Below are positions 8,116-25,897 of a DNA stretch of 32,000 nt, one piece after another. The DNA is from Dehalococcoidia bacterium. Lineage in GTDB: Bacteria > Chloroflexota > Dehalococcoidia > GIF9 > AB-539-J10. The translations under genes and the position numbers were made by a program. Location: the NCBI GenBank assembly GCA_016933195.1, contig JAFGBN010000002.1, positions 11,155 to 43,154 of the forward strand, in the 5' to 3' direction. Position 1 is the stretch's first letter; every line of letters starts with the position of its first letter. The notes beneath the pieces were generated by a model, which did not search any database, was not told where the DNA came from, and saw only the letters and a list, made by a program, of their open reading frames with translations.

Positions 8116-8526
8116 TACCTGCGAGAGATTGAAAAATGGCATTAGCCAAGCCTGGCTGCCAGCTAATATGGAGAGAGCGTAATCTACCCTTTCCCTTCGT
8201 AGAAGGTCAACTGAAACTACAGTGATCTTTTCCTGAACATCTGTTTTGTTCCTGGCTTCCAGAACCTTTTCTTTGATATCCTTTTGAAGGTCTTACAAGG
8301 ATGCGAATATGACCTCTTAGACCTGGAAGTGGTATCTCACGTGTAAACAGGTAAGCATTTATAGACCATTCTCGCGCATCCGCTCTACTCAAGGTGTCGA
8401 TTTCTCTATGGGAATATCCTTAGCTGGTGCTCCTGCCTAGCTTTTTGCCATCTCCATTCACCAGCCAGTTTTCAAACAATCCCTTAAAAATCTGGTAGTG
8501 TTCCCATGGTACAAAACCAACTATTG

Positions 8527-8556
8527 TTGACACTTGACATTAACGAGAAATATAAT
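8527..8556 (+). promoter_or_regulatory. Near-consensus sigma70-type promoter for the Wood-Ljungdahl cluster
   Basis: TTGACA at 8527-8532, an 18-nt spacer, and TATAAT at 8551-8556. The cooC ATG is at 8571, so the predicted leader is only about 7-8 nt. No SD is visible in GTGGCCTCTGTAAT. Confidence 0.55.
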
Positions 8557-8570
8557 GTGGCCTCTGTAAT

Positions 8571-9335
8571 ATGAAGATTGCCGTTAGCGGAAAAGGAGGG
8601 ACGGGCAAGACCATGTTAGTGTCCTTCCTTTCTATTATATTCGCTAAAGCTGGCTATTCTGTTATTGCCATAGATGCTGACCCAAATGTCAACCTAGCAG
8701 ATACCTTTGGCTTCCCCAATTCCGAGAAGATAATACCTATATCCAAAATGGATGACCTTATTGAGGAGAGGACAGGGGCAAGGCCTGGTCAAATGGCACC
8801 CTATTTCAAGTTAAATCCCAAAGTTGACGATTTGCCAGATAAGTGCTCTCTAAAATATGGCGGAATCAGGATAATGGTCATGGGGCCGATTAAGGCAGCT
8901 GGCAGCGGCTGTTATTGCCCCGAAGGCGCTTTGCTCGAAGCCTTGGTTGCACATTTGCTACTTAAGGTAGATGAAATAGTTATTTTAGATATGGAGGCTG
9001 GGATAGAGCATTTGACGCGGGGAACTGCGAAGGGAGTGGATAAGCTAATTATAGTAGTAGAACCAACTAGGAAGAGCGTTCTAACAGGCTATAGAGTAAG
9101 AGATTTGGCTCTAGAGGTAGGTTTGCAGAGTATCGGAGTGGTGGGCAATAAGATTCGGAATGGGAAAGAAAAGGATTTCCTTATCTCCAACATGGCAGGC
9201 TTTGAATTCCTGGGGTTTATTCCTTATGACGAAGACATAGCAGAAGCTGAGATTAGTGGTTTACCTCTCATTGAGGCCAGCGAAAAAGTTATGAGCGAAG
9301 TAAAAAACATTGCTGCTCGACTTGGTGATCGATGA
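8571..9335 (+). CDS. cooC: CooC/AcsF-type Ni-insertion ATPase (CODH/ACS maturation), canonical form
   Basis: 254 aa. It has the deviant Walker A MKIAVSGKGGTGKT and the CxC metal motif GSGCYCPEG. Its C-terminus is MinD/ParA-like (GNKIRN...LGFIPYDEDIAEAE). Confidence 0.8.
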   Translation: MKIAVSGKGGTGKTMLVSFLSIIFAKAGYSVIAIDADPNVNLADTFGFPNSEKIIPISKMDDLIEERTGARPGQMAPYFKLNPKVDDLPDKCSLKYGGIRIMVMGPIKAAGSGCYCPEGALLEALVAHLLLKVDEIVILDMEAGIEHLTRGTAKGVDKLIIVVEPTRKSVLTGYRVRDLALEVGLQSIGVVGNKIRNGKEKDFLISNMAGFEFLGFIPYDEDIAEAEISGLPLIEASEKVMSEVKNIAARLGDR

Positions 9336-9386
9336 GACAGAAATTATTGGTGAGCCAAGAATTTTAAAAAAAGAGAGGAGGGTATT

Positions 9387-11150
9387 ATGGCCTACGATGC
9401 AACAAAAATGAAAGACTGGCAGATTTCAGAAGCAGCTGAGGAAAAGATGCCAACCCCCGACGAGTGGCGGGAAAGATTAAACTTGCAAAAGGACGAGATT
9501 ATTCCTTTCGGGAGGCTATGCAGGCTTGATTTCATGAAGATAATTGAGCGTCTCAAGGATAGGCCGGATGGCAAATACATTGAGGTGACTGCCATAACCC
9601 CCACCCCATTAGGGGAAGGAAAAACGACGACTCTGATGGGCATCCTGGAAGGCATGGGCAAGCGAGGTCTGAATGTGGGCGGTGCAATTCGCCAGCCCTC
9701 GGGTGGCCCAACTATGAATATTAAGGGAACCGCTGCGGGCGGTGGCAATGCGCTGCTCATTCCTATGACGGAATTCTCCATGGGCCTTACCGGCGACATC
9801 AACGACATCAGCAATGCTCACAACCTGGCTATGGTGGCGCTTACTGCCAGAATGCAGCATGAGCGAAACTATAATGACGAGGAGTTGGTCAAACGCAGCA
9901 GGATGCGTCGTCTGGACATCGACCCGACCAGAGTAGAGATGGGTTGGGTCATGGATTTCTGCGCCCAAAGCCTCAGGAACATTGTTATAGGCCTCGGCGG
10001 TCGCATGGATGGCTTTGCAATGCAGTCCAAATTTGGTATCACTGTGAGTTCTGAAATCATGGCAATGCTGTCTATTGTGAACGACTTGGCGGACTTGCGT
10101 GAAAGGATGGACGAGATTACCGTAGCTTTTGATAAGAAAGGCAATCCCGTTACCACAGGCGACTTAGGAGTGGGGGGCGCCATGACCGCCTGGATGCGCA
10201 ACACTATCAATCCCACCTTGATGTGCACAGCGGAGTATCAGCCGTGCATGGTGCATGCTGGTCCCTTTGCTAACATTGCCGTGGGCCAGTCCTCCATCAT
10301 CGCTGACCGCATCGGGCTGAAGATGTATGATTATCATGTCACTGAGAGCGGCTTTGCCGCAGACATCGGGTTCGAGAAGTTCTGGAACGTCAAGTGTCGC
10401 TACAGTGGTCTCAAGCCACACGTGTCAGTACTCACCACCACTATCAGAGCACTAAAGATGCATGGTGGTGGGCCTAAGGTGGTGGCTGGTTTGCCCCTGC
10501 CTGAGTCCTACACTAAGGAGAACTTGGGGCTCTTGGAGAAAGGTATTCCTAATATGTTGCACCACATTAACACCATCAGGACATCGGGCATCAATCCTGT
10601 GGTGTGCATCAATAGCTTCCATACGGATACCAAGGAAGAAATCGCTATGGTGCGAAAGGCAGCTGAGGGGGCTGGAGCAGGCTGTGCCGTGTCCAGTCAC
10701 TGGGCTGATGGCGGCGATGGCGCTCTGGAGTTGGCTGATGCAGTTAAGGAAGCCTGCGAAGCTAAGACCGATTTCAATTTCCTTTACCCCTTGAAAATGA
10801 AACTGCGGGAACGAGTGGATAAGATTGCTAAGGTGGTATATGGAGCTGATGGAGTGTCGTGGACCCCTGATGCTGAAGCCAAAGCTAAGTCGCTTGAGGC
10901 TGATTCCAAATACGATGAGTACGCTACCATGATGGTGAAGACGCACCTGAGCCTGACCCACGATCCGTCCATTAAAGGCACTCCAAAGGGATGGATGCTA
11001 CCCATTCGCGATGTGTTGATTTATTCCGGGGCGAAGTTCCTCTGTCCCTGCGCTGGCACCATCAGCCTCATGCCAGGAACCAGCTCTGATCCTGCCTTTA
11101 GAAAGGTGGATGTCGATACAAAGACGGGCAAAGTGCAGGGGCTTTTCTAA
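9387..11150 (+). CDS. fhs: Formate--tetrahydrofolate ligase
   Basis: 587 aa with [13 protein letters not shown] (the nucleotide-binding loop), [10 protein letters not shown], and [11 protein letters not shown]. The similarity to Fhs runs the full length. Confidence 0.95.
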
Positions 11151-11195
11151 AAGGCAGTAGACCTAACTTAGAAAGGATAGACTTCGGCGTCCAAA

Positions 11196-11222
11196 TAACC
11201 TCTCCCTTTAAGGGAGAGGTTA
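11196..11222 (+). promoter_or_regulatory. Perfect hairpin in the fhs/Fe-S gene spacer that sequesters the downstream SD
   Basis: TAACCTCTCCC-TTTAA-GGGAGAGGTTA forms an 11-12 bp stem. The 3' arm GGGAGAGG (11212-11219) is the only SD-like element for the GTG at 11226. No T-run follows, so it is not a classic intrinsic terminator. Confidence 0.5.
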
Positions 11223-11225
11223 AAG

Positions 11226-11891
11226 GTGAGGATACTGGAAGAAACAAAGACTGTCTCTCTAACCATTGACGGAAAAGAAATAAAAGCTGCTAAAACTGAG
11301 AAGATACTATGGGCAGCTTTAGATAATGACGTCTATATTCCGAACCTTTGTGCTATTCGAGAAAAGAATGAGCCTTTTGCTTCCTGCCGCCTCTGCTTTG
11401 TGGAAGTGAAAGGCAGGGAAATGCCTGTTACTGCTTGTACTGAGCCAGTGGCAGAGGGCATGGTAGTTAATACTAAAGGGGAAAAGGCCTTAAGGCTAGC
11501 CCGTATTGCTTTCGAGTTGCTCTTAGCTAGTTTGCCTGTAGACTGTGCTCACTGTTCCAAAAGCGGTTCTTGTGAGCTTCAGAAGATTGCCAAGCACTTA
11601 CGTGCAAAGCTCAGCACAAAGAGATTCAGGAAAACTCTGCGTGGCTTACCAATAGATTCCAGCAGCCCTCTATTTATCTATGATCCTAATAAGTGTGTAC
11701 TCTGTGGCAGATGTGTTTGGGTATGCCAGAAAAAACTGAGCATAGCAGCGATTGGTTTTGCCTACCGTGGCTTCCGGCGGATGGTCACCACCTTTGGAGA
11801 TGAGCCCATTGGCCAATCCAGGTGTCAAGGCTGCGGGGAATGTGTTGATGTTTGCCCTGTTGGTGCATTGGTGTTTAAACGGGAGAATTGA
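11226..11891 (+). CDS. NuoG/HydA N-terminal-like Fe-S protein ([2Fe-2S] plus 2x[4Fe-4S], no catalytic domain)
   Basis: 221 aa. It contains a plant-type 2Fe-2S pattern (C-x11-C-x2-C-x13-C, NLCAIREKNEPFASCRLCFVEV...TAC). It also has a degenerate N5-like motif, LPVDCAHCSKSGSCELQ, in which the usual His (HPxDC) is Leu. Two ferredoxin motifs follow: CVLCGRCVWVC and CQGCGECVDVCP. Confidence 0.75.
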   Translation: MRILEETKTVSLTIDGKEIKAAKTEKILWAALDNDVYIPNLCAIREKNEPFASCRLCFVEVKGREMPVTACTEPVAEGMVVNTKGEKALRLARIAFELLLASLPVDCAHCSKSGSCELQKIAKHLRAKLSTKRFRKTLRGLPIDSSSPLFIYDPNKCVLCGRCVWVCQKKLSIAAIGFAYRGFRRMVTTFGDEPIGQSRCQGCGECVDVCPVGALVFKREN

Positions 11892-11949
11892 CATACACGC
11901 TGCCTTATAGTAAATTATTGAGCTTGGGTTCAAGAAGGAGAGATAAAGC

Positions 11950-12834
11950 ATGGTTATAATAGGTGAGAACATACATGTTATAGCGAAAGAAGTAAATGAT
12001 GCCATAAGAGCTCGAAATCCCAAACCAATCCAGGATTTAGCTAGAGCCCAGGATAAGGCGAGGACTGACTATATAGATGTAAATGTTGGTTACTTAAGGA
12101 AAGACACTGAAGAAACCATGAAGTGGATAATCAACACAATTCAAGAGGTTACTGATTTGCCTCTGTCTATAGACACTATGAACCCTGTGGCCATGGAGGT
12201 GGGTCTCAGGCTTTGTAAGAAGAGACCTTTGCTTAATTCCGCTTCAGGGAAGACTGACTCTAAAGAGCAGATGCTCCCATTAGCAAAGAAATATAATTGT
12301 GATGTAGTGATTTCGGTGATTAACGATAAGGGTATGCCTGCTGAGGGCGATTCAAAATTGGACAGCATCATGGATACAGTGGCTTACGCTAACGATCTGG
12401 GAATTCCCAATGAGAATATTTGGGCTGACCCCATAGCTCTCCCAGTAAGCACTGCTGGTGAGGGGCAGAAGAATGCCTTGGCAACTTATGAATTTATAGA
12501 GATGCTTCCTGAAGCTTTGCCTGGGCTTAAATCAACGTTAGGGCTTTCCAATATTTCTAACGGAGCACCTATTGAACTTAGACCTCTACTTAACCACGTT
12601 TACTTGATAATGTTGGCTAGGAAAGGGCTTTACTCGTCAATTCACGATGCCCTGGATGTGGATATTATGAGCGTATCGAAGGGCGGGAAAGAAAATCTAG
12701 TTGACCTCGTCTACAGAACATGGGATGGAGAGGACATAGACCTTTCTTCCCTATCCCAAGAGCAAATAAATTACGTTAAGACGACCAGGGTTCTCGCAGG
12801 TGAAGTGCTCTATTCCGATGCTTGGCTTGAATAA
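11950..12834 (+). CDS. acsE: Methyl-tetrahydrofolate:corrinoid Fe-S protein methyltransferase (pterin-binding, DHPS-like barrel)
   Basis: 294 aa. The sequence MVIIGENIH...DYIDVNVG...PLSIDT...LNSAS...ISNGAP is typical of pterin-binding methyltransferases (AcsE/MtrH-like). It lies immediately upstream of cdhD. Confidence 0.75.
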   Translation: MVIIGENIHVIAKEVNDAIRARNPKPIQDLARAQDKARTDYIDVNVGYLRKDTEETMKWIINTIQEVTDLPLSIDTMNPVAMEVGLRLCKKRPLLNSASGKTDSKEQMLPLAKKYNCDVVISVINDKGMPAEGDSKLDSIMDTVAYANDLGIPNENIWADPIALPVSTAGEGQKNALATYEFIEMLPEALPGLKSTLGLSNISNGAPIELRPLLNHVYLIMLARKGLYSSIHDALDVDIMSVSKGGKENLVDLVYRTWDGEDIDLSSLSQEQINYVKTTRVLAGEVLYSDAWLE

Positions 12835-12846
12835 GGAGGTTCAATA

Positions 12847-13746
12847 ATGGAGTATAAAGCACCAGTGGAAGCATACACTGGAGTAGTTAGGGAGGAAACT
12901 ATTGGGACGGGGGAGAAAGCTATAAAGCTGGGAGGGGAGAACATTCTCCCCTTCCATTTTTTTGATGAGGGTTCAGCCCCCCATGCGCCAACCTTCGCCT
13001 TGGAGATGTTGGATATGGAGCCTACAGATTGGCCGGAACACTTAGTTGAACCCTTCAAGGATGTGATATCCGATCCAGTGAAATGGGCTAAGAGGTGTGA
13101 AGGATTTGGTGCGGATGCGGTCAGCATTTTCCTTCTGAGCACTGATCCTGCAGGAGAGAATCGCTCTGCGGAGGGAGCGGCAACACTGGTAAAAGAAGTG
13201 GCTGAGTCAATAAGTATCCCTGTGCTTGTCTACGGCTCCGGGGATGATAAGAAGGATGCTGAGGTTCTCCCCAAGGTTGCTGAGGTGTGCGACGGAATGA
13301 ATCTCCTTATAGGCCCGGTGCTTAAGGAAAACTACGAAGTTGTGGGGAGGGCAATTCTAGATCACGGGCATAAAGCCTGGGCCGAGAGTCCTTTAGATAT
13401 CAATTTGCTTAAGGAGTTAAATGTAAAGCTGTGTCATTTCCTGCCTCCCGAGAGGATTGTAATTGATCCAGAATCCACAGCGCTGGGCTATGGCTTTGAA
13501 TATAGCTTCACTCTAATGGAAAGGGTGAAACAGCTTGGAGTAATTATTAAGGATAGCATGACACAGATGCCCATGATCGCTAATTTGGGAAAGGAAGTTT
13601 GGAAGACAAAGCAAGCCAAAGAGAGCGAAAAGCAAGGCTTGCTGTTTGAGGGAATGACGGCTTTAGGACTCCTTTTAGCCGGAGCAAATATCCTTGTCTT
13701 GAGGCATCCCGAGAGTTTAAAGTTAGTAAAAGAAACAATCAGTTAA
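12847..13746 (+). CDS. cdhD: Corrinoid Fe-S protein small subunit (ACDS delta / AcsD)
   Basis: 299 aa with ...IKLGGENILPFHFFDEG...PTFALEMLDMEPTDWPEHL... and a TIM-barrel-like remainder. It has a strong SD (TAAGGAGG). Confidence 0.8.
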   Translation: MEYKAPVEAYTGVVREETIGTGEKAIKLGGENILPFHFFDEGSAPHAPTFALEMLDMEPTDWPEHLVEPFKDVISDPVKWAKRCEGFGADAVSIFLLSTDPAGENRSAEGAATLVKEVAESISIPVLVYGSGDDKKDAEVLPKVAEVCDGMNLLIGPVLKENYEVVGRAILDHGHKAWAESPLDINLLKELNVKLCHFLPPERIVIDPESTALGYGFEYSFTLMERVKQLGVIIKDSMTQMPMIANLGKEVWKTKQAKESEKQGLLFEGMTALGLLLAGANILVLRHPESLKLVKETIS

Positions 13747-13773
13747 AGATATTTTTTAAGAAAGAGGTGAAAA

Positions 13774-16089
13774 ATGGCAGAGGTAAAAGAAAAGACGCTT
13801 TCCAAAAAATTGGAGGAAGTCCATGAGCGCATAAAAGCGGAGATTCCTTGGGAGCCAGTAGGGCCCACCCCAATGCCAGAAATTCCCGATCTGAGAAGCT
13901 GGGACATGAGGCTTCTTAAAACCTACGCGCCATTTTATTCTCCATTCTGTGATTTATGTTGCTTCTGCACCTATGGGAAGTGTGACCTCACCGAGGGTAG
14001 AAGGGGAGCCTGTGGCATTGACATAGCCACGCAACAGGCAAGGTTTATACTTTTGGCTTGTTTGATAGGATGTTCCGCTCACGCCGCTCACGGCGGGCAC
14101 ATTCTGGAGTTTCTTATAGAGAAGCATGGCGCAGATAAGAAGATAGATATGGGCCCATTCATTGAGATTGAAGCGCCAAATATAAGGACAGTTACTGGTT
14201 TGAAACCAGAGACCCTGGGAGACCTCCAAATAGCTCTAGAGTATGTATTCAAGGAGATTGCCCACCTTCTTGATTCTTGCCACACGGGACAAGAGGGAAG
14301 CGCTCTGGATTATGAATCTAAAGCCTTGCATGCTAGCATGCTGGACCATGTAGGTATGGAGATAGCTGATATTGCCCAAATTGTGGGATTTGGCTTCCCT
14401 ACTTCTGTTGCTGATACACCTCTGGTGGAGATGGGATGGGGGGCGATAGATAAAAGCAAGCCAGTAATCTTACTATCAGGGCATAATCCAGCTACCTCGA
14501 CGGTGGTAATTGACTATCTCAGGGAACACAACCTTGAAGACCAGGTAGAGGTCTGCGGCCTATGCTGCACTGCACTAGAAACTACAAGGTATTCAGACAA
14601 AGCTAAAATAGTTGGTCCTCTTTCCCGTGCACTTTTCTTCATGAGGGCGGGCATTGCCGATGTTATCATGACAGACGAGCAATGCATAAGAACAGACACG
14701 CCTCAGGAAGCAGCCAAGGTGGGTTCAGCAGTTATCGCCTGTCTTGACAAGGCTATGTATGGACTTGAGGATGCCACTGAGATGGATTCGGATAAGATAG
14801 TAAGACGAATGGTGGATAATAAAGAACAGTTTGCCATCTTGGACTCCTCAAAGGCAGCCGAGGTAGCGGTCAAAGTCGCCATGGAACTTGCCCCCCAGAG
14901 AAAGAAGGAATGGCTAACGGAGGAAGAAGCCATAGAACTGGCTAAGAAGTGTACTAATTGTGGCATGTGTGAGAGAGTATGTCCCAATCTTTTCTCCATC
15001 GGCGAAGGGATAACCAAGTTGGCCAAGGAAGGCAATTTCGACTTGATAAGGAAGCAATTCCTGCAGTGCATTGGCTGTGGAAAATGCGAGCAAGAGTGCC
15101 CCAACAAAGTTCCCATCTTCAAGATAATGCAGACAGCGACGAGCATGGAGACCTGGAAATGCAGGGCTGGGCGCGGTCCTGTTATGGATACCGAGATAAG
15201 GAATGTCGGTGCACCTCTTACCTTGGGTACAATCCCCGGAGTTATTGCCCTCGTCGGTTGCTCCAACTACCCCGATATTGAAGATATTGCCGACATGGTA
15301 GAGGAGTTTGCCAAGAGAAAGTATATTGTAGTCCTCACAGGCTGTGCCGCTATGGTTGCCGGAATGAAGAAAGACGCCGATGGCTTAACCGTGTATGAAA
15401 AGTTTCCTGCCGATTTTGATGCTGGAGGGGTAGTGAATATTGGCTCATGTGTTTCCAATGCTCATATCAGTGGAGCGGCGATAAAGATAGCCAATATCTT
15501 TGCTGCTCTTCCTTTAAGAGGGAACTATGAGGTCATGGCTGATTACGTGCTTAACCGAGTGGGCGCCTGTGGTGTAGCCTGGGGTGCAATGTCCCAGAAG
15601 GCAGCTTCCATCGGCACCGGGTTCAATAGGTTGGGTGTGCCCGTGGTTTTAGGTCCTCACTCCTCCAAGTATAGAAGGCTGTTTCTCTCTAGGAAGGAAG
15701 AGGATGATTGGAAGGCTATGGATGCCAGGAAGAAGGAGATTGTGGATACTGTGGAGCCTGCCCCCGAGCACTTGGCTTATGTATGTGAGACAAAAGAAAA
15801 AGCCATGCCAATGATAGCCAAGCTGTGTATAAGAAGAAACGATACCCCTCAGGGAAGGGCGATAAAACTTAACCACTATATTTCCCTGTACAAGAAGTAT
15901 ATTGGAGCGGGTTTGCCCGAAGATATTCAGCTCTTTGTCCGAAGGGATGCTGATATTCCTTTGGTCTATAAAAAGGAAGTGCGGGCATATCTACAGGAAA
16001 TCGGCTGGCAACCCAGGGAGCCAATTGGACTTCCTACCTTGATTGGGACTTATCCTAGCAAGATTCCTGTGGATGCAGTAATACATTAG
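13774..16089 (+). CDS. cdhA: ACDS alpha subunit: archaeal-type Ni-CODH
   Basis: 771 aa. The N-terminus is Cys-rich (FCDLCCFCTYGKCDLTEGRRGACG). An internal 2x[4Fe-4S] ferredoxin insertion is present (CTNCGMCERVCP, CIGCGKCEQECP). The C-cluster region reads GCSNYP/GSCVSNAH. The length and the insertion are characteristic of CdhA rather than bacterial AcsA/CooS. Confidence 0.9.
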   Translation: MAEVKEKTLSKKLEEVHERIKAEIPWEPVGPTPMPEIPDLRSWDMRLLKTYAPFYSPFCDLCCFCTYGKCDLTEGRRGACGIDIATQQARFILLACLIGCSAHAAHGGHILEFLIEKHGADKKIDMGPFIEIEAPNIRTVTGLKPETLGDLQIALEYVFKEIAHLLDSCHTGQEGSALDYESKALHASMLDHVGMEIADIAQIVGFGFPTSVADTPLVEMGWGAIDKSKPVILLSGHNPATSTVVIDYLREHNLEDQVEVCGLCCTALETTRYSDKAKIVGPLSRALFFMRAGIADVIMTDEQCIRTDTPQEAAKVGSAVIACLDKAMYGLEDATEMDSDKIVRRMVDNKEQFAILDSSKAAEVAVKVAMELAPQRKKEWLTEEEAIELAKKCTNCGMCERVCPNLFSIGEGITKLAKEGNFDLIRKQFLQCIGCGKCEQECPNKVPIFKIMQTATSMETWKCRAGRGPVMDTEIRNVGAPLTLGTIPGVIALVGCSNYPDIEDIADMVEEFAKRKYIVVLTGCAAMVAGMKKDADGLTVYEKFPADFDAGGVVNIGSCVSNAHISGAAIKIANIFAALPLRGNYEVMADYVLNRVGACGVAWGAMSQKAASIGTGFNRLGVPVVLGPHSSKYRRLFLSRKEEDDWKAMDARKKEIVDTVEPAPEHLAYVCETKEKAMPMIAKLCIRRNDTPQGRAIKLNHYISLYKKYIGAGLPEDIQLFVRRDADIPLVYKKEVRAYLQEIGWQPREPIGLPTLIGTYPSKIPVDAVIH

Positions 16090-16123
16090 TGAAGAAGATG
16101 AATAGGCTAAAAGGAGGGAAAAA

Positions 16124-16675
16124 ATGAGCGCAGTAATACCACGACATAGGGTAAATGTCTTAACCGGAATCAAATCAGCCAAGCTAATCGAAGACCCGAC
16201 GGAGTACTCTAATTTGATTCGAAAGGCAAAAAGACCGCTTCTCGTAGTTGGGCCTCTCTTGCTTGAATCGACGCCCGACGGCAAGTTGCTCCTCGAGTAT
16301 GCCTTAGACATTGCCAAGCCTAGCAATATCCCCATATGTGCCACAGCGCAAACTAAAGGGAAGGTGGGAGAGCTAGGAGTCAAGCCAGATTCTGTTTATG
16401 ATGTCGTGGAGATAACGAATGCTCTTAAAGACCCCGACTGGAATGGAGTTAGAAGAGAAGGTAATCATGACCTGGTGATCCTTTTTGGCATAAGGAGCGA
16501 CCTTGGGAACCAAAGCCTTTCCACACTCAAGCACTTCGCCCCTCACCTGAAAACTATGACATTGTGTAAGCATTACTTCCCTCATGCCAATTACTCCCTT
16601 ACCAATTTCAAAAAAGATGCTAAGTGGTTGGAGTTTCTGGAAAGCTTAATAGAGAACTTGAAGAAAGGAGGATAG
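16124..16675 (+). CDS. cdhB: ACDS epsilon subunit
   Basis: 183 aa, directly downstream of cdhA, with the size and position of CdhB. The sequence reads ...RPLLVVGP...ICATAQTKG.... Confidence 0.75.
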   Translation: MSAVIPRHRVNVLTGIKSAKLIEDPTEYSNLIRKAKRPLLVVGPLLLESTPDGKLLLEYALDIAKPSNIPICATAQTKGKVGELGVKPDSVYDVVEITNALKDPDWNGVRREGNHDLVILFGIRSDLGNQSLSTLKHFAPHLKTMTLCKHYFPHANYSLTNFKKDAKWLEFLESLIENLKKGG

Positions 16676-16680
16676 AAAAA

Positions 16681-17928
16681 GTGGAAGGCGAATTTCACGC
16701 AGATATTGGACCCCAATATGAAGGTGAGGTGATAAGGAAGGAAGATCTTTACCTGGAGTTTGGTGGCCCTAAGGTAGCATATAAATTTGAGCTGGCGACG
16801 GTGAAGAGCCTCGATGAAGTAGAGAATGAGAAAATAGAGATTATCGGTCCCGATATAAATGAATTGGAAGCTTACGATGAAGAAAAGAAGGGTGGGAGTT
16901 ACCCTATAGCTATTCTGGTTGATGTTGCTGGAGGGGAACTGGACAAGGATGCCGAGGCGATCATTGAGAGAAGGATTCACATGTTTACTAACATGGTTGA
17001 GGGTTGGTATCACATGAATCAGAGGCAAGATTGCTGGTTGAGGATAAACAAGGATTGTTATAAGAAAGGCTTCACTTCCTTAAAGGAATTGGGGGAAATT
17101 TATAGCTTGCTATATACTTCAGAGATGTCAATAATTGAGAAAATCCAAATCACTATTATCACTGATGAGGGAAAAATAAAGGAACTTCTGCCGCACGCTC
17201 TGGAGGTTTATGCTGCCAGGGATGAAAGGGCAAGGACTCTAAGGGATGAAGACGTGGATACATTTTATGGCTGCGTCCTTTGTCAGAGTTTCGCTCCTAC
17301 CCATGTCTCCATTATAAGCCCGGATAGGATTGCCAATTGTGGAGCCATAAACTGGTTTGATGGCAGAGCTGCAGCCAAGATCGACCCTGAAGGACCTATA
17401 TTTGCTATACCAAAAGGGGAGCTTATAGACCCCATAAAGGGTGAATACACGGGAGCGAATAAAGTTGAATTTGAGAAGTCCCTGGGGACTTACGACAGGG
17501 TTTATCTCTATAGCGCCTTCGATCATCCCCATACTTCATGCGGCTGTTTCGAGGCTATAGTTTTCTATATTCCTGAGGTAGATGGATTTGGACTCGTGCA
17601 CAGGGATTTCAAGGGTGAGACTGTAATTGGAGAGACCTTTTCTCATATGGCTGGTGAAACATCTGGTGGAAAGCAAATAGAAGGCCGCCTGGGAACTGGA
17701 CTAGAGCAATTAAGGTCTCCCAAGTTCATTCAGGCGGATGGGGGACGGAGAAGAATGGTGTGGATGCCCAAAGACATAAAAGAGAGATATAAAGAAGCCT
17801 TTGAAGCAGATGGGGTATATGACAAAATTCCCACAGAAGAAGACGTAAAAAATACCGATGAGCTTCTGGAATTTCTTGATAAGGTAGGACACCCCTGGAT
17901 AATGGGGGAAGTGGAGCTTCCTGGGTGA
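16681..17928 (+). CDS. cdhC: ACDS beta subunit: acetyl-CoA synthase (A-cluster), short archaeal form
   Basis: The A-cluster Cys-Gly-Cys is present (HTSCGCFEA), as are the [4Fe-4S] cysteines (CVLCQSFAPTHVSIISPDRIANCGA). I prefer GTG at 16681, which has AGGAGG 8 nt upstream and lies 5 nt after the cdhB stop, over the ORF-track start at 16624 inside cdhB. The 415-aa product lacks the N-terminal domain of bacterial AcsB. Confidence 0.9.
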   Translation: MEGEFHADIGPQYEGEVIRKEDLYLEFGGPKVAYKFELATVKSLDEVENEKIEIIGPDINELEAYDEEKKGGSYPIAILVDVAGGELDKDAEAIIERRIHMFTNMVEGWYHMNQRQDCWLRINKDCYKKGFTSLKELGEIYSLLYTSEMSIIEKIQITIITDEGKIKELLPHALEVYAARDERARTLRDEDVDTFYGCVLCQSFAPTHVSIISPDRIANCGAINWFDGRAAAKIDPEGPIFAIPKGELIDPIKGEYTGANKVEFEKSLGTYDRVYLYSAFDHPHTSCGCFEAIVFYIPEVDGFGLVHRDFKGETVIGETFSHMAGETSGGKQIEGRLGTGLEQLRSPKFIQADGGRRRMVWMPKDIKERYKEAFEADGVYDKIPTEEDVKNTDELLEFLDKVGHPWIMGEVELPG

Positions 17929-18036
17929 GACTGTCGCGAGCAAGGCGAAGCAATCCAACCCAGAAGTGAAGATAAAAAGTAAAGATAACCCTCGTTAACT
18001 CAACGCTTTTACCTGGCGAGGGGGAGGTAGGTTATT

Positions 18037-19401
18037 ATGCCGATTGCAGGATCCCAAATTATGAAGATGCTTCCTGGCAGGAAGCCATGTAGGGAGTGTG
18101 GCTTCCCTACCTGTTTTGCCTTCGCTATGAAGCTAGCTTCAGGCGGGACAACCGTAGATAAGTGCCCTTATCTGGATGAGGAGGCGAAAGCTAAACTAAC
18201 AGATCTTCTGGCACCGCCTATAAAGCTTGTCACCATAGGCTCAGGGGAGAATAAGATTCAAATCGGGAATGAAGAGGTAATATATAGACACGAGAAGACC
18301 TACCACCATGCACCAGGAATTGGTCTACTTATCTCCGATAAGGAGGCTGACGACAAAATTGATGAGAAGATAAGGAAGATAAAAGAGCTGCAGTTCTCCT
18401 GGATAGGAGTAACACTTAAGGCAGACCTGTTAGCTCTCTACTTTGAATCAGGTGATAGGAATAGATTTCTAGCTTTGGTCAAAAAAGTTTACCAATCAAC
18501 CGATGTGCCCATGATTTTGATTTCAGAAGATATGGATGCCTTATTTTCTGCCAGGGATCTATGTGCTGACAGAAACCCCCTTCTCTACCCTGTGACCAAA
18601 GAAAACATAGAGGAAACAATCCCAAAGATTAAAGAGAAGCCTAGTCCGATAGGAGTTCGGGGGGATAATCTAGAGTCGTTGGCATCTTTAACTCTTAGAT
18701 TAAAGGATGCCGGCATTGAAGATGTGGTCTTAGCCCCAGGCTCCAAGAGTCTAATGGAAGCGGTGAGAGACCAGACCTTCATCAGGAGGGCGGCCATAAA
18801 GCAAGGATTCAGACCTCTTGGCTATCCTACCATTGCTTTCCCCTGCTTCATAGCTAAAGATGGGCTAAAAGAGGCTATGGCTGGCTCAGCCTTTATAAAC
18901 AAGTTCACTAGCATAATCATATTCTCCGATTTCGACCAATATTCCTTACTTCCCACTTTAATTCAAAGGCTCAATATTTATACTGATCCTCGCTTTCCCA
19001 TGGGGGTGGACGAGAAATACTATGAGGTATTGGAGCCTGATGAATATTCCCCTGTTCTTGTCACCTCAAACTGGGCCTTGACTTATTTCCTGGTGTCCTC
19101 GGCTGTCGAGGCTACTAAAATTCCTGGCTATGTTTGCGTAAAGGATTCGGAAGGGCTTGGTGTCCTTACAGCTTGGGCAGCGGGCAAGTTTGACGGCGAA
19201 TCTGTGGGGGAATTTATTAAGAAAAGTGGAATCGCAGACCGCGTAAAACACAGAAAGCTAATTATCCCAGGCAAGGTGGCCAGAATTAAAGGTGCGCTGG
19301 AAGACGCCTTGAATCTTGAATGGGAGATTATAGTTGGTCCCAAAGAAATAACTGCGTTGGGAAAATTCCTTCCAGACGTTGCTAAAAACCTAAGGGAATA
19401 A
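18037..19401 (+). CDS. cdhE: Corrinoid Fe-S protein large subunit (ACDS gamma / AcsC)
   Basis: 454 aa. The N-terminal [4Fe-4S] motif is CRECGFPTCFAFAMKLASGGTTVDKCPY (Cx2Cx4Cx16C). The C-terminus has a Rossmann-like corrinoid-binding domain. Confidence 0.85.
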   Translation: MPIAGSQIMKMLPGRKPCRECGFPTCFAFAMKLASGGTTVDKCPYLDEEAKAKLTDLLAPPIKLVTIGSGENKIQIGNEEVIYRHEKTYHHAPGIGLLISDKEADDKIDEKIRKIKELQFSWIGVTLKADLLALYFESGDRNRFLALVKKVYQSTDVPMILISEDMDALFSARDLCADRNPLLYPVTKENIEETIPKIKEKPSPIGVRGDNLESLASLTLRLKDAGIEDVVLAPGSKSLMEAVRDQTFIRRAAIKQGFRPLGYPTIAFPCFIAKDGLKEAMAGSAFINKFTSIIIFSDFDQYSLLPTLIQRLNIYTDPRFPMGVDEKYYEVLEPDEYSPVLVTSNWALTYFLVSSAVEATKIPGYVCVKDSEGLGVLTAWAAGKFDGESVGEFIKKSGIADRVKHRKLIIPGKVARIKGALEDALNLEWEIIVGPKEITALGKFLPDVAKNLRE

Positions 19402-19404
19402 AAG

Positions 19405-19917
19405 TTGATAGGCACAAAGGAGTCAGAGCAATTAGCTAAGACCTTATCATCATACAGTAAAGAAAGGAAAAGCTTAGTTCCTTTATTGCAGGAAGTTCAG
19501 GCGAAACTGGGGTATCTTGCCACGGAAGCGATGCGAGAGATTGCTAGTTTCTTGGCCATCCCGGAAATTGAAGTCTATGGAGTCGCTACCTTCTATAACC
19601 AATTTCGGTTCGTTCCCTTGGGAAAGCACCATGTCAGAGTTTGCATGGGCACTGCGTGTCATTTTGCAGGAGGGAAGCTTATTCTGGAAGCTTTAGAAAG
19701 GGAACTTAGCATCAAGGTAGGAGAAACTAGGGGGGATGGGGAATTCAGCTTAGAACGAGTCGCTTGTGTTGGTTGCTGCATGCTAGCTCCGGTAATGATA
19801 ATAGGAGATGAGATTCATCCTAAAATGACGCCTTTCAAAGTGGAGGAAGACTTAATACCTTACAAGCAAGAATCTCAAAAAGAGAGCTCAGGCGAAGAGC
19901 AAGCTGGGGAGCATTAG
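19405..19917 (+). CDS. NuoE/HydC-like thioredoxin-fold [2Fe-2S] protein
   Basis: 170 aa with VATFYNQF...VRVCMGTACH...ACVGCCMLAP, which supplies the four 2Fe-2S cysteines. TTG start 3 nt after the cdhE stop. Confidence 0.8.
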   Translation: MIGTKESEQLAKTLSSYSKERKSLVPLLQEVQAKLGYLATEAMREIASFLAIPEIEVYGVATFYNQFRFVPLGKHHVRVCMGTACHFAGGKLILEALERELSIKVGETRGDGEFSLERVACVGCCMLAPVMIIGDEIHPKMTPFKVEEDLIPYKQESQKESSGEEQAGEH

Positions 19918-19930
19918 GAAAGCATAGTGA

Positions 19931-21850
19931 ATGACGTTTCAGGAAATCCAGAACCAAGCAAAATCCGAATGGGAAACTCTGCAAAATAACACTTATATCC
20001 TCATTGGCACAGCCACTTGTGGTAAAGCAGCTGGTGCCTTAGCTACTCTTGAAGCTTTGGGAAAAGAGCTGTCACGGCAGAGTGCCGATGCTAAAATTAT
20101 TCAGGTTGGCTGCATGGGGCTGTGTTATGCCGAGCCCTTAGTTACTATATCAAAACCCGATTCTTTCCGTGTGGTGTACCATAACGTAACCCCGGAGCTT
20201 GTCCCTCGTCTTATAGAAGGCTATATTATGGGCGATGATCCTTGCCTTGAACTTGCCTTGGGCACTTTGGAAGGGGGTGGGGATGAAGCTCCCTATATCC
20301 CGGAACTACCCAGATTTGAACGTGAACTTCGTCTTGTATTGCGCCGTTGTGGCTACATCGACCCGGCGAATGTAAACCATTACATCGCTAATGGTGGATA
20401 TAGCAGCTTGGGAAGGGCGCTGAAGATGCAACCTGAGGAGATAATTGAAAAGGTAAAAAATTCAGGATTGCGCGGGAGAGGTGGAGCTGGATTTCCCACT
20501 GGACAGAAGTGGGAGTTTTGCCACAAGGCTGAAGGAGAGCCGAAATACGTGGTATGTAATGCTGATGAGGGGGATCCGGGTGCATTTATGGACCGAGTTG
20601 TTTTGGAAAGTGACCCTCAGCAAGTTATAGAGGGGATGATTATTGGTGGTTATGCTGTGAATGCCAGACAAGGATATATTTATGTCCGTGCTGAATATCC
20701 TTTAGCCATCGAATGCCTGGAGATTGCCTTAAAGCAAGCAGAGGGACTAGGTCTTTTAGGGGATAATATCTTGAGCAGCGGTTTTAATTTTCATATAGGG
20801 CTAGCCATGGGGGCTGGTGCTTTCGTCTCCGGTGAGGAGACGGCACTAATGGAGGCTGTGGAAGGAGAGATGAGTACACCCAAGCCAAGACCGCCTTATC
20901 CTGCTGAAGCTGGATTGTGGGGCAAACCCACCCTGCTAAATAATGTGAAAACTTTTGCCAATATCCCATTGATAATCGAGCGGGGCGCAGATTGGTTTTC
21001 CTCCACGGGGACTGAGGGAAGCAAAGGGACAGCGGTGTTTACTCTGGCAGGCAAGGTTAACAACGCTGGACTTGCCGAAGTGCCTATGGGCACAACACTG
21101 CGTGAGCTCCTTTATGACATTGCTGGCGGGATTCCTAAAGATAAGTCATTTAAAGCGGTACAGATAGGGGGCCCCTCGGGAGGCTGTCTCCCCGAGAGTT
21201 TACTTGACACGCCTCTTGACTATGACTCTCTCAGGGAGGCTGGTTCGATGTTGGGCTCAGGAGGCATGATTGTCATGGATGAGGATAGCTGCATGGTTGA
21301 TGCTGCTCGCTTCTTCCTCGATTTTACCACAAAGGAATCTTGTGGCAAGTGTACTCCATGTCGGCTAGGAACATTGCAGATGCTTCATATCCTGGAAGAT
21401 ATTACAACGGGTAAGGCTGAAGCCAAAGACCTCGATCTCCTGATTGAGCTAGCCGAAGGTGTAAAAGCAGGGTCGCTTTGCGCCTTGGGGGGAACAGCCC
21501 CAAATCCTGTTCTCACTACCATGAGGTACTTCCGCGATGAATATGAAGCTCACATCTTGCAAAAGCGCTGCCCAGCGAAGGTCTGCCCTGAACTCACCGC
21601 CTATTATATCCTTCCTGATAAGTGTGAGAGAAGCTGTGAGCATTGCTTGCTCACTTGCCCTACCGAGGCTGTTAAAGGCGAAAAAGGAGAGATAAAGTTT
21701 ATCGATCAAGAGAAATGTGTTAATTGCGGCACTTGCATGGATGTTTGTCCTCCCGAGTATGATGCAGTGATAAAGCTATCACCTATTACCCAACTTCCTC
21801 CAGAAGACCTAGCAGCTAAGGAACGATGTATAGCGCAACAGGTGACATGA
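19931..21850 (+). CDS. NuoF/HydB-like NAD(P)H-binding flavoprotein with extra Fe-S domains
   Basis: 639 aa. It has an N-terminal Trx-like 2Fe-2S domain (TATCGKAAG...VGCMGLCYAEP). The FMN/NADH site reads GLRGRGGAGFPTGQKW and the N3 cluster reads ESCGKCTPCR. A C-terminal 2x[4Fe-4S] domain is present (CERSCEHCLLTCP, CVNCGTCMDVCP). Confidence 0.85.
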   Translation: MTFQEIQNQAKSEWETLQNNTYILIGTATCGKAAGALATLEALGKELSRQSADAKIIQVGCMGLCYAEPLVTISKPDSFRVVYHNVTPELVPRLIEGYIMGDDPCLELALGTLEGGGDEAPYIPELPRFERELRLVLRRCGYIDPANVNHYIANGGYSSLGRALKMQPEEIIEKVKNSGLRGRGGAGFPTGQKWEFCHKAEGEPKYVVCNADEGDPGAFMDRVVLESDPQQVIEGMIIGGYAVNARQGYIYVRAEYPLAIECLEIALKQAEGLGLLGDNILSSGFNFHIGLAMGAGAFVSGEETALMEAVEGEMSTPKPRPPYPAEAGLWGKPTLLNNVKTFANIPLIIERGADWFSSTGTEGSKGTAVFTLAGKVNNAGLAEVPMGTTLRELLYDIAGGIPKDKSFKAVQIGGPSGGCLPESLLDTPLDYDSLREAGSMLGSGGMIVMDEDSCMVDAARFFLDFTTKESCGKCTPCRLGTLQMLHILEDITTGKAEAKDLDLLIELAEGVKAGSLCALGGTAPNPVLTTMRYFRDEYEAHILQKRCPAKVCPELTAYYILPDKCERSCEHCLLTCPTEAVKGEKGEIKFIDQEKCVNCGTCMDVCPPEYDAVIKLSPITQLPPEDLAAKERCIAQQVT

Positions 21851-22611
21851 TGGCCAGGAAAGTTGTTTCCACTGGAAGAGGAGGAGCAGGGAAATCAAGC
21901 TTTGTTGCTTTGATTAGCAAATACCTGAAAGCTCCGACATTACTTATTGACCTTGATCCCGACCTCAGTCTTGCTGATATGCTTGGGTTTGATTTTCATA
22001 AGGAAGGGAAAAGAACTGTCTGCGAAGCGCTTTACGACGTCATCGAAAAAAGAAAAAGCAATATAAGCCCTACGATTACAACACACGATCTGATGGAATC
22101 CTTGCTATGGAGTGATTGTTTATACGAAGGAAGAAAAATGGACCTCATTACTCTGGGAACAAAGCTCACCGAAGGCTGCCTTTGCGCGCCAGACGAGATA
22201 CTCAGGAAAACAATTCCCAAGCTAGCTAAGAATTATGCCAGCATGGTAGTAGATTCTCCAGCAGGAGTGGAACATTTGAATCGGAATATAGTATCGGACA
22301 TAAATGACCTTTTCGTTGTATGCGACCCATCCGACAAATCCTTGAAGCATATATCGAGAGTCAAAGAGATTATTAAGCAAGTGGGAATTAGGTACAGTCA
22401 CTTTTACCTGGTGGCAAACTACGAGTGTAATGAAGAGGCAGAGAAGTACTTACAGGGTAAGGGAGAAGTCTATCTGGGCAAAATAGACTACGATGCTTAT
22501 TTAGAACAATACAACTTGGAGGGCAAGTCTCTTTTGGGGTTGCCTGAGGATTCGCCTGCTTCTTTGTCTATAAAGAGGATTTTGGCAAAGGCAGGCTATC
22601 AGATTAGGTAG
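21847..22611 (+). CDS. Atypical CooC-like P-loop ATPase (Arg in place of the signature Lys)
   Basis: MMARKVVSTGRGGAGKSSF carries Walker A GRGGAGKS instead of GKGGxGK[ST]. The CxC motif GCLCAPDE is retained. The start ATG overlaps the nuoF-like stop (ATGA). It is a paralogue of 23056..23838. Confidence 0.7.
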   Translation: MMARKVVSTGRGGAGKSSFVALISKYLKAPTLLIDLDPDLSLADMLGFDFHKEGKRTVCEALYDVIEKRKSNISPTITTHDLMESLLWSDCLYEGRKMDLITLGTKLTEGCLCAPDEILRKTIPKLAKNYASMVVDSPAGVEHLNRNIVSDINDLFVVCDPSDKSLKHISRVKEIIKQVGIRYSHFYLVANYECNEEAEKYLQGKGEVYLGKIDYDAYLEQYNLEGKSLLGLPEDSPASLSIKRILAKAGYQIR

Positions 22612-22880
22612 AGTGGAGAACAAGCAAGAATGAAGGAAGATACTGTGGCCAAAACCAACGATAACGGTATGGCATGAGAAGTGCTATCACCCAGAGAGAT
22701 GTGACAGAGAGAAATTTGTGCTGCTGTTCTTGAATATCTTAGTGGACTTTGGAAGTAAGAAAAGCGATAATATTTACCTTACCCTATTCCAGGGTTTTGC
22801 CAGTATTGAGGTACATGCGTTGAGCCATGCCCCATGGAGGCAATTAGGATGTTCTAAACAATGCACATGAAGGCAGAAAG

Positions 22881-23051
22881 ATGAGAGACAAGCGACTGTA
22901 TTGGTGCCCTTTTTGTCAGCGCAATGTTTCATTATGGAGGACAAAAGATAACAAATTAATGTGTCCCCGATGTGGTAGGGAGGTAGTTTACATAACAAGC
23001 GATGGTAGTATCGGGGCAATCAAAGGAAAAGAGCTAAGTAAGGGGAAATAG
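22881..23051 (+). CDS. Small zinc-ribbon protein (56 aa), absent from the ORF track
   Basis: Hand translation gives MRDKRLYWCPFCQRNVSLWRTKDNKLMCPRCGREVVYITSDGSIGAIKGKELSKGK*. Two CxxC knuckles lie 15 residues apart. The stop TAG at 23049-23051 is 4 nt before the next start (23056). It is on the same strand as the whole operon. The SD is weak. Confidence 0.5.
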   Translation: MRDKRLYWCPFCQRNVSLWRTKDNKLMCPRCGREVVYITSDGSIGAIKGKELSKGK

Positions 23052-23055
23052 CAAT

Positions 23056-23838
23056 ATGGGGAAAGTACTTGTTTCTACAGGAAGAGGCGGAGCAGGCAAA
23101 TCGACTTTTGTGGCTTTGGCCAGTAGATATTTGAATCCCCCAAAGCTGCTGATAGACCTCGATCCCGATGAGAGCCTAGCTGACATGGTCGGAGTGGATT
23201 TGAAGGGAAAAGGGAAAAAGACCATTTCGGGTGCTCTTTACGACGCTATAGAGGAGAACAAAGGAGTTGGTCTCACAGGCTATAATCTCCTATCCGATGT
23301 ACTGCAATCCGTCTTGTACAAGGGAAGAGAATTTGATCTTATCGCCTTGGGAACAAAGTTTACTGTGGGTTGTTACTGTGCCCCAGATGCAGTACTCAAA
23401 GACTTCATCCCCAGTCTGGTTGAAGATTATGAAGAGCTAATAGTAGACTCACCTGCGGGGTTGGAGCATTTCAATCGCAAGGTGGTGATGAACATAGATG
23501 ACATATTTGTAATGCTAGACCCCTCCGAGAAATCCGCAAAACATATAGAAAGGGTCAGGGATATTATCAGGGAAGTGAAGGTTAGCTACAATCATCTCTA
23601 CCTGATAGGGAACTACAGATTTAGCGAGGAAACGGAAAAGTATTTGCGAGGCACAGGGGAGGCTTATTTAGGGAAAATAGACTATGATTCTAATGTAAGG
23701 CAATATAATTTGGAGGGGAAATCTCTTCTTGGCTTGCCCCAGGATTCTCCTGCTGCCCTCTGTGTAAGAAGGATTTTGAAGAAGGCAGGCTACAAAATCA
23801 AGGATGGAGATTTAACATCAAGCCGAGCGAGAAAGTAG
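23056..23838 (+). CDS. Atypical CooC-like P-loop ATPase, second tandem paralogue
   Basis: MGKVLVSTGRGGAGKSTF shows the same K-to-R Walker A, with the CxC motif GCYCAPDA. It is collinear with 21847..22611 over its full length (for example LGKIDYD...YNLEGKSLLGLP.DSPA). Confidence 0.7.
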   Translation: MGKVLVSTGRGGAGKSTFVALASRYLNPPKLLIDLDPDESLADMVGVDLKGKGKKTISGALYDAIEENKGVGLTGYNLLSDVLQSVLYKGREFDLIALGTKFTVGCYCAPDAVLKDFIPSLVEDYEELIVDSPAGLEHFNRKVVMNIDDIFVMLDPSEKSAKHIERVRDIIREVKVSYNHLYLIGNYRFSEETEKYLRGTGEAYLGKIDYDSNVRQYNLEGKSLLGLPQDSPAALCVRRILKKAGYKIKDGDLTSSRARK

Positions 23839-23878
23839 CCGAGGATTTACCTTTGGAAAAGTTTAGGAGGTAGAGTTA

Positions 23879-25882: not shown

Positions 25883-25897
25883 GTAAGGAGGAGCAAG

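Follow-up and report, generated by a model that had tools for sequence, protein, structure and literature searches.

Genes of the CODH/ACS locus

We analyzed a stretch of 32,000 nucleotides from a Dehalococcoidia bacterium (contig JAFGBN010000002.1; hereafter the window, whose numbering is used for all coordinates) that carries genes for a carbon monoxide dehydrogenase/acetyl-coenzyme A (CoA) synthase (CODH/ACS). Open reading frames (ORFs) were listed and profile searches with Pfam and NCBIfam were run over the window. An earlier reading of the sequence alone (the sequence-only reading) had placed an archaeal-type five-subunit complex, CdhABCDE, joined to a bacterial tetrahydrofolate (THF) methyl branch, between positions 8571 and 21850. 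ORF listing and profile searches agreed with this reading on the positions and the plus-strand orientation of the genes that it had named. Taxonomy, synteny and ligand motifs were observed directly, as were the genes present, their families and their domain architecture. The features of the locus and of the genes that follow it were:

8527-8556, plus strand: sigma-70 consensus TTGACA-18 nt-TATAAT, 12/12 matches, the sole perfect site within 7900-24000
8571-9335, plus strand: cooC1, CooC/AcsF-type nickel-insertion P-loop ATPase (Pfam CbiA/ParA; P-loop GKGGTGKT; CxC motif, CYC, residue 114)
9387-11150, plus strand: fhs, formate-THF ligase (PF01268, 699 bits, full length)
11226-11891, plus strand: HoxU/NuoG-N-terminal/BfuA-like Fe-S protein, 221 aa (Pfam Fer2_4, NADH-G_4Fe-4S_3, Fer4)
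11950-12834, plus strand: acsE-like methyl-THF:corrinoid/Fe-S protein methyltransferase (Pfam Pterin_bind)
12847-13746, plus strand: delta subunit, bacterial AcsD type, small subunit of the corrinoid Fe-S protein (CoFeSP), 299 aa (NF003376, 341 bits against a cutoff of 280)
13774-16089, plus strand: cdhA, CODH alpha subunit, archaeal type, 771 aa (TIGR00314, 1083 bits against a cutoff of 781)
16124-16675, plus strand: cdhB, epsilon subunit, 183 aa (TIGR00315, 134.5 bits against a cutoff of 101; PF02552)
16681-17928, plus strand: cdhC, two-domain (A2-A3) acetyl-CoA synthase, 415 aa (TIGR00316, 571 bits against a cutoff of 356)
18037-19401, plus strand: gamma subunit of the bacterial AcsC type, the large CoFeSP subunit, carrying an N-terminal [4Fe-4S] and a corrinoid domain (NF003195, 536 bits)
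19405-19917, plus strand: NuoE/HoxE/HydC (BfuC)-like [2Fe-2S] protein (PF01257, 166 bits; NF005722, 159 bits against a cutoff of 141)
19931-21850, plus strand: NuoF/HydB (BfuB)-like flavoprotein binding flavin mononucleotide (FMN) and NADH (Pfam Complex1_51K, NADH_4Fe-4S, SLBB; Fer4 dicluster at residues 559-607)
21826-22611, plus strand: cooC2, CooC/AcsF-type ATPase (Pfam AAA_31/CbiA; P-loop; CLC motif)
23056-23838, plus strand: cooC3, CooC/AcsF-type ATPase (Pfam AAA_31/CbiA; P-loop; CYC motif)
23879-24610, plus strand: metV1, Fe-S/zinc-ribbon subunit associated with methylene-THF reductase (PF12225, 101.7 bits)
27874-28536, plus strand: metV2 (PF12225, 112 bits)
28566-29435, plus strand: metF1, methylene-THF reductase (PF02219, 135 bits)
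30645-31562, plus strand: metF2, second methylene-THF reductase (PF02219, 135.6 bits)

Matches of the locus genes to curated models had E-values of 0 to 1e-39, at which chance matches would be out of the question. From cooC1 to the nuoF-like gene, eleven genes follow each other in the order cooC, fhs, hoxU-like, acsE, delta, cdhA, cdhB, cdhC, gamma, nuoE-like and nuoF-like, all on the plus strand. For cdhC an alternative GTG start at 16624 would give a protein of 434 aa with the same end at 17928, compared to 415 aa from the ATG at 16681. The start of cooC2 overlaps the stop of the nuoF-like gene, a 444-bp gap follows the cooC2 end, and cooC2 is probably the last gene of the transcription unit. 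Since the intergenic gaps inside 8571-22611 do not exceed 108 bp, this range is the likely transcription unit, slightly longer than the one originally delimited. The 455-bp intergenic gap preceding cooC1 (8116-8570) contains the sigma-70 consensus, a likely candidate for the operon promoter; its end lies 14 nt before the cooC1 start codon, which implies a very short leader. The cooC1 product was 32% identical to CooC of Methanosarcina lacustris (M. lacustris), and the CxC motif is common to both.

Beyond the 444-bp gap, cooC3 and metV1 come first, then a 106-aa ORF and the genes for the [NiFe] hydrogenase subunits, small before large, then hycI, metV2 and metF1; a histidine kinase gene, metF2 and a response regulator gene complete the series. 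The placement of fhs, an AcsE-like gene and metF/metV together in one co-directional operon therefore held in part: fhs and the AcsE-like gene are present and the metF and metV genes are co-directional, but the latter lie at 23879-31562, outside the range that had been assigned to the operon.

Archaeal-type core and bacterial-type methyl-transfer subunits

CdhA, CdhB and CdhC all exceeded the cutoffs of the NCBIfam archaeal equivalog models. Among solved structures CdhA scored 888 bits to PDB 8riu_A and 720-739 bits to Methanosarcina CdhA, while bacterial AcsA, which supplies the CODH in CODH/ACS, reached about 69-77 bits and stand-alone CODHs less; CdhA also failed the CooS-type model (TIGR01702, 74 bits against a cutoff of 478). 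The internal 2x[4Fe-4S] insertion that had been recognized in the 771-aa protein was recovered as a Fer4 dicluster at residues 390-446 (E/F clusters), its motifs CTNCGMCERVCP and CIGCGKCEQECP line up with the archaeal structures, and the Cys and His motifs of the B, C, D, E and F clusters were kept in the alignments. The 183-aa protein is indeed the epsilon subunit, and its PDB matches were archaeal epsilon subunits only. CdhC scored 447 bits to archaeal 9c0s_E (Methanosarcina CdhC) and 391 bits to bacterial AcsB, aligning to AcsB residues 322-723 only; the A1 (prismane/Rossmann) domain is thus missing, in agreement with the absence of the AcsB N-terminal domain noted from sequence alone. Against NF040764, the model of three-domain AcsB, it reached 501 bits (cutoff 800) and covered positions 289-699 of 705. 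The protein ends about 10 residues past the region aligned to residues 2-395 of M. lacustris CdhC (415 aa compared to 469 aa), and the C-terminal extension of archaeal CdhC was not found in it. Identities to M. lacustris were 46% for CdhA, 32% for CdhB and 47% for CdhC. In a neighbor-joining tree of CdhC the archaeal CdhC was placed outside the bacterial clade and AcsB on a long branch. Archaeal-type CdhA, CdhB and CdhC, as had been claimed, are thus present in a bacterial genome beside genes of the THF branch.

The methyl-transfer subunits gave a different picture. The delta subunit scored highest among solved structures to bacterial CoFeSP (2h9a_B, 273 bits) and was 44% identical to Carboxydothermus AcsD (263 bits); the corresponding values for M. 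lacustris CdhD (437 aa) were 33% and 147 bits, with CdhD residues 125-413 only aligned. Similarly, gamma had its best structural match in bacterial CoFeSP (2h9a_A, 369 bits) and was 40% identical to bacterial AcsC (352 bits), compared to 34% and 226 bits for M. lacustris CdhE, which with the rest of the M. lacustris cdh locus served as the archaeal reference, the PDB set having no matching archaeal gamma/delta chain. Identities of the AcsC/AcsD-type subunits to most bacterial references were 39-44%, and 36% to AcsD of Clostridium autoethanogenum. These comparisons indicate that gamma and delta are of the bacterial AcsC/AcsD type. The best structural matches of the AcsE-like protein were the Carboxydothermus and Moorella MeTr enzymes (157 bits to 2yci_X, E 5e-45). 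Archaeal-type CdhABC together with bacterial-type gamma, delta and AcsE make the system a six-subunit hybrid and not the five-subunit archaeal CdhABCDE of the sequence-only reading, whose subunit accounting has to be revised; its archaeal CdhABC, genomic context and lineage stood.

Relatives and alternative readings

Relatives were obtained from one CdhA scan of species-representative genomes, which yielded 80 loci (designated L001 and so on). The nearest CdhA sequences were those of Dehalococcoidia/'Dehalococcoidales' metagenome-assembled genomes (MAGs) at 98-80% identity (98% for L001 and L002), as expected from the lineage that had been guessed from the sequence, followed by Syntrophales/Thermodesulfobacteriota MAGs at about 76-78%. 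The order acsE-acsD-cdhA-cdhB-cdhC-acsC was common to the related Dehalococcoidia and Syntrophales loci of sufficient length, and was followed by nuoE-nuoF in most loci that extended far enough. Essentially the arrangement fhs-hoxU-acsE-acsD-cdhA-B-C-acsC-nuoE-nuoF-cooC-cooC was found in Syntrophales/Thermodesulfobacteriota MAGs (L033, L042, L045-L049, L051-L054, L056-L058, L064 and L074). The main Syntrophales group was nested inside Chloroflexota sequences in the CdhC tree, which points to a recent inter-phylum transfer of the whole cluster among bacteria, after the older archaeal donation that the literature proposes. For the latter, Adam et al. (2018), as cited in PMC6305446, are credited with a single transfer from Euryarchaeota to Bacteria and later spread among bacteria.

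The hybrid itself is already published for the same lineage and with the same gene order, and is ordinary for Dehalococcoidia; the expectation that it would not be new was borne out by PMC6305446 and PMC7325909. A 'six-subunit' hybrid of CdhABC and AcsCDE was described, with single-protein trees, in NPL-UPA2, Ca. Desulforudis audaxviator and Chloroflexi RBG_13_51_36 (PMC6305446), the operon acsED-cdhABC-acsC was reported in PMC7325909, and the holders named across these two papers include Hakuba Actinobacteria. Archaeal-type CdhA has also been noted in Chloroflexota and Desulfobacterota (PMC13240472) and bacterial CdhC in Chloroflexota, Thermodesulfobacteriota and Myxococcota (PMC13370988, a July 2026 preprint). 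Sewell et al. (2017) used 'archaeal-type' for the ATPase only and not for the CODH.

On this evidence we are highly confident that the window is Dehalococcoidia (Chloroflexota) DNA with a known six-subunit hybrid CODH/ACS operon (CdhABC and AcsCDE) inside a Wood-Ljungdahl gene cluster, the order acsE-acsD-cdhA-cdhB-cdhC-acsC occupying 11950-19401 of a bacterial genome. Transfer of an intact archaeal ACDS complex (acetyl-CoA decarbonylase/synthase), CdhABCDE, as a whole into a bacterium, where it would merely lie beside folate genes, would account for the archaeal-type CdhA, CdhB and CdhC and for family names, since both gamma and delta go by 'CdhD' in Pfam (PF03599) and by 'acetyl-CoA decarbonylase/synthase complex subunit' in NCBIfam. 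We nevertheless consider it very unlikely: the 299-aa delta is without the N-terminal region of archaeal CdhD and stays under the TIGR00381 cutoff (189 bits compared to 253, over model positions 63-369), both delta and gamma score higher to bacterial AcsD and AcsC (263 and 352 bits) than to M. lacustris CdhD and CdhE (147 and 226 bits), a separate AcsE is encoded, and published trees class the gamma and delta subunits of the hybrid as bacterial (PMC6305446). The gene order also differs from the cdhA-B-C-cooC-D-E of the fetched M. lacustris locus, in line with the departure from Methanosarcina given in the sequence-only reading. Several points nonetheless weigh against the assignment as a six-subunit hybrid within a Wood-Ljungdahl cluster. 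The type call for gamma and delta is based on the published trees and on pairwise scores, for which one reference was archaeal (M. lacustris) and three were bacterial; the AcsE-like protein scored 214.6 bits to NF005719, under the cutoff of 259; folD and formate dehydrogenase genes were not found in the window; hybrid enzymes have so far no biochemical data according to PMC7325909; and the A-cluster may behave differently from that of characterized enzymes, one canonical cubane Cys being Ser as detailed below.

A junction artifact, in which an archaeal cdh fragment had been assembled with bacterial DNA, could be suspected from the guanine-plus-cytosine (GC) content, which is 0.44 in 1-8 kb and slightly higher, 0.46-0.50, in 9-12 kb; we consider the artifact so improbable that we give it practically no weight. 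Junctions were reproduced by two independent assemblies: L002 is collinear with the window over 4023-24482 at about 92-94% nucleotide identity, and in L030, a 229-kb contig, plsY-gatC is directly joined to cooC-fhs. The tetranucleotide correlation, a check that had been proposed together with the initial claim, was 0.89 between 1-8.5 kb and 8.5-22 kb; inside the operon region it was 0.93, and comparison with Syntrophales loci gave 0.65-0.76. GC skew was positive throughout the window. Moreover, bacterial-type fhs, acsE, acsC/D and nuoEF are interleaved with cdhABC, and more than 50 bacterial MAGs have the same operon, some on contigs of up to 823 kb. An archaeal origin of the contig was likewise rejected, based on the collinear independent assemblies and the uniform tetranucleotide composition. 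The finding is thus mainly contextual, a Dehalococcoidia contig with a Wood-Ljungdahl island around a published hybrid CODH/ACS.

Two features of the locus, the genes for a NuoE/NuoF/HoxU-like electron module and a substitution at the CdhC A-cluster, have received less attention in the literature searched, and they are the sole leads that we consider worth following. The cubane motif of CdhC in the window is C198-x2-C201-x8-S210-x9-C220, compared to the C-x2-C-x8-C-x9-C spacing, with Cys at the third position, seen in the alignments for archaeal CdhC and bacterial AcsB. The Moorella ligand numbering Cys509/Cys518/Cys528 is one that we take as given, no paper having been found for it. Residues at the motif columns were extracted from related loci by tblastn, and 56 of 69 related sequences had Ser at the third cubane position. 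An alignment of 69 rows, which includes the window and two PDB references, showed Ser210 in 55 rows; 16 of these have Cys one residue earlier at position 209 (13 from the main Syntrophales group and three from Chloroflexota), and the other 39 have Cys at neither 209 nor 210. Cys126 was present in 34 of these 39 rows and in none of the sequences with the canonical Cys. The Ser state is derived in the neighbor-joining CdhC tree, and the Ni-binding C287-G-C289 is intact in the window.

The genes of the electron module bracket the CODH/ACS genes in the window, with the hoxU-like gene (11226-11891) on one side and the nuoE/nuoF-like genes (19405-21850) on the other. The sequence-only reading had been silent on them, even though they lie inside its own coordinates. 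Domain assignments give the HoxU-like protein [2Fe-2S] and [4Fe-4S] clusters and no catalytic domain; its NCBIfam scores were 168 bits to HoxU and 195 bits to the FeFe_hydrog_A6 N-terminus, both under cutoff. The NuoF-like protein has the HydB/BfuB architecture, with an N-terminal [2Fe-2S]-type set of Cys30/61/65/105, an FMN domain and a C-terminal 2x[4Fe-4S] domain. In domain content, the NuoF-, NuoE- and HoxU-like proteins fit BfuB, BfuC and the N-terminal domain of BfuA of the Bfu (HydABC-like) family, of which they would be candidate members.

A tentative reading of these genes, which we hold to be possible and rather doubtful, is that the hybrid CODH/ACS would form an arm of a Bfu-type (HydABC-like) bifurcating complex, in which the HoxU/NuoE/NuoF-like proteins would wire CdhA/CdhB to nicotinamide adenine dinucleotide, NAD(H), with or without ferredoxin. 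Along with the bracketing in the window and the HydB/BfuB architecture, it is favored by conservation: among the 52 related loci with enough flank, a nuoE-like gene was found at most 3 kb downstream of acsC in all 52 and a nuoF-like gene in 48. An additional nuoE-nuoF-hoxU set lies between cdhA and cdhB at 12356-15378 of L003, as seen from ORFs and Pfam domains, and L070 appears to have the same set at this place, by sequence similarity only. The 'sandwich' arrangement of genes is also the argument from which Schut et al. (2022) proposed Codh-Bfu, BfuABC with CooS, in Firmicutes only and with no ACS (PMC9304861), and the 8RIU CODH, which contains the closest solved CdhA, carries an additional flavoprotein where alpha and epsilon meet, its electron acceptor being F420 and not ferredoxin (PMC11493965). 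On the other hand, the support is drawn from gene neighborhood only, earlier authors suggested merely that nearby nuoEF 'may regenerate NADH' and nothing further (PMC3971608, PMC6305446), and the hoxU-like gene was found upstream of acsE in just 23 of 53 related loci. The module could instead serve MetFV, as RnfC2 does in Acetobacterium, the adjacent [NiFe] hydrogenase or a formate dehydrogenase encoded elsewhere.

Should NuoE and NuoF, with or without HoxU, be enzyme subunits, this would mean an NAD(H)-coupled CODH/ACS in abundant subsurface bacteria, and such coupling would bear on running the pathway near thermodynamic equilibrium in either direction. Taken together with the A-cluster, it is conceivable, at rather low confidence, that the hybrid would represent a functional variant of its own. 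A HydB/HydC/HoxU-like (Bfu-type) module wired firmly to it would couple CO2/CO or acetyl-CoA redox to NAD(H), possibly by bifurcation, and not to free ferredoxin alone. In a large Dehalococcoidia/Syntrophales subclade, the replacement of one canonical cubane Cys by Ser210, accompanied by Cys126 in most of the sequences with Cys at neither 209 nor 210, may retune the cluster. Neither of these two ideas is treated in the literature searched.

For the hybrid as a whole, established knowledge of CODH/ACS suggests the following course of events. CdhA2B2, of archaeal origin, would interconvert CO2 and CO at the CdhA C-cluster, with the extra E/F [4Fe-4S] clusters of CdhA as the electron route; the electron partner would probably be the co-encoded NuoE/NuoF/HoxU-like flavoprotein module, or ferredoxin. 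The two-domain CdhC, likewise of archaeal origin and without A1, would dock transiently on CdhA and receive CO at its Ni-Ni-[4Fe-4S] A-cluster. The separate AcsE would load the methyl group from methyl-THF onto the AcsCD corrinoid, and this bacterial-type CoFeSP (AcsC/AcsD) would hand it to the CdhC A-cluster, where methyl, CO and CoA would condense to acetyl-CoA. Fhs and MetFV from the same cluster would supply or consume the folate-bound one-carbon unit, and the three CooC-type ATPases would insert nickel. The assembly of the complex, the electron partner and the direction of flux, towards acetyl-CoA synthesis or cleavage, are aspects that we infer.

Flanking genes and comparison with known systems

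Upstream of the locus, the bacterial genes that had been named in the flank are present on the minus strand within 1-1746, in the order gatC-plsY-gatA, with gatA running off the window start:

753-1391, minus strand: plsY, between gatC and gatA
1405-1746, minus strand: gatC (profile searches)

These are followed on the plus strand by genes for an HpaB-family protein, a short-chain dehydrogenase/reductase (SDR), a metallo-beta-lactamase-fold protein and an adenosine monophosphate (AMP)-forming ligase. Compared to the Dehalococcoidales locus L030 this block (1733-8524) is an insertion between gatC and cooC1, and L002 shares it at least from 4023 onward. The HpaB-family protein may belong to the 4-hydroxybutyryl-CoA dehydratase type, as its low scores to the HpaB equivalog models suggest. 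L008 has an Amidase-family gene, likely gatA, on the opposite strand directly upstream of acsE. Rfam at gathering thresholds and a tRNA scan gave no matches over the whole window.

A second insertion compared to L030 spans 24738-28547 and comprises a cooC remnant, a group-1-like [NiFe] hydrogenase, hycI and metV2. No family match was obtained for the 106-aa ORF (24690-25010). Judged by eye it looks like the C-terminal portion of a CooC-type ATPase, and it is probably what is left of such a gene at the border of the hydrogenase cassette, a block missing from L030. The hydrogenase (25007-27454) is group-1/NiFeSe-like, its large subunit scoring 687 bits to NF033181 (cutoff 600). Its small subunit aligned from model position 37-47 on, so it is apparently without a twin-arginine translocation signal and would be cytoplasmic. 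The location of the hydrogenase between metV1 and hycI-metV2-metF1 is a hint of a methylene-THF reductase linked to H2. Where the cluster ends, a histidine kinase binding cyclic nucleotide monophosphates (29490-30617) and a response regulator (31586-31993) are interleaved with the two metF genes and may regulate the pathway.

The closest published counterpart is RBG_13_51_36 (L013), which has an equal subunit set in the equal order acsE-acsD-cdhA-cdhB-cdhC-acsC, with nuoEF adjoining the cluster there as well. Its identities to the window were 89% for CdhA, 85% for CdhB, 86% for CdhC, 75% for AcsC, 77% for AcsD and 69% for AcsE. In the window cooC-fhs-hoxU is fused upstream, whereas L013 and its close relatives begin at acsE, beside gatA, and the downstream part with cooC2, cooC3, metV and the hydrogenase cassette is different as well.

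With archaeal ACDS CdhABCDE (Methanosarcina; PDB 3CF4, 9C0Q-T; PMC13370988) the system shares the E/F-cluster insert of CdhA, the epsilon subunit and the two-domain CdhC without A1. In contrast, it is without the N-terminal coiled-coil/disordered region of CdhD and the C-terminal extension of CdhC, and has bacterial-type gamma and delta, a separate AcsE, enzymes for folate and not for methanopterin, and another gene order; in archaeal ACDS, CdhD and CdhE carry out methyl exchange with the pterin and have no AcsE of their own. The archaeal supercomplex needs the CdhD N-terminal coiled-coil region and disordered termini (PMC13370988), and with delta and CdhC lacking their respective extensions an assembly of the approximately 2-MDa ACDS type is therefore not expected. 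The more likely working form would be CdhA2B2 on which CdhC docks transiently, alongside AcsE and a free CoFeSP of the bacterial kind. The likeness to bacterial AcsABCDE (Moorella, Carboxydothermus, Clostridium autoethanogenum) comprises the AcsC/AcsD-type CoFeSP, AcsE, the CooC/AcsF maturases and the THF methyl branch. Here, however, the CODH consists of CdhA and CdhB and not of a CooS-type AcsA (at most 77 bits), and the ACS is without the A1 domain, which in AcsB holds onto AcsA and forms part of the CO tunnel.

Two further systems resemble the window in their electron output. The F420-reducing CODH of Ca. Ethanoperedens thermophilum (PDB 8RIU, PMC11493965), the best solved match of CdhA at 888 bits, combines an alpha2-epsilon2 core with a dedicated flavoprotein electron-output subunit; there the partner is an FrhB-like F420 reductase (zeta subunit), whereas the candidate in the window is the NuoE/NuoF/HoxU-like NAD(H) module, known from genes alone. 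In Codh-Bfu, as in the window, the CODH genes lie between a BfuA-like gene and BfuC/BfuB-like genes, and BfuB has a C-terminal ferredoxin domain. There, however, the bracketed enzyme is a CooS-type CODH in Firmicutes, while here it is the complete CdhABC/AcsCDE set of Chloroflexota and Syntrophales.

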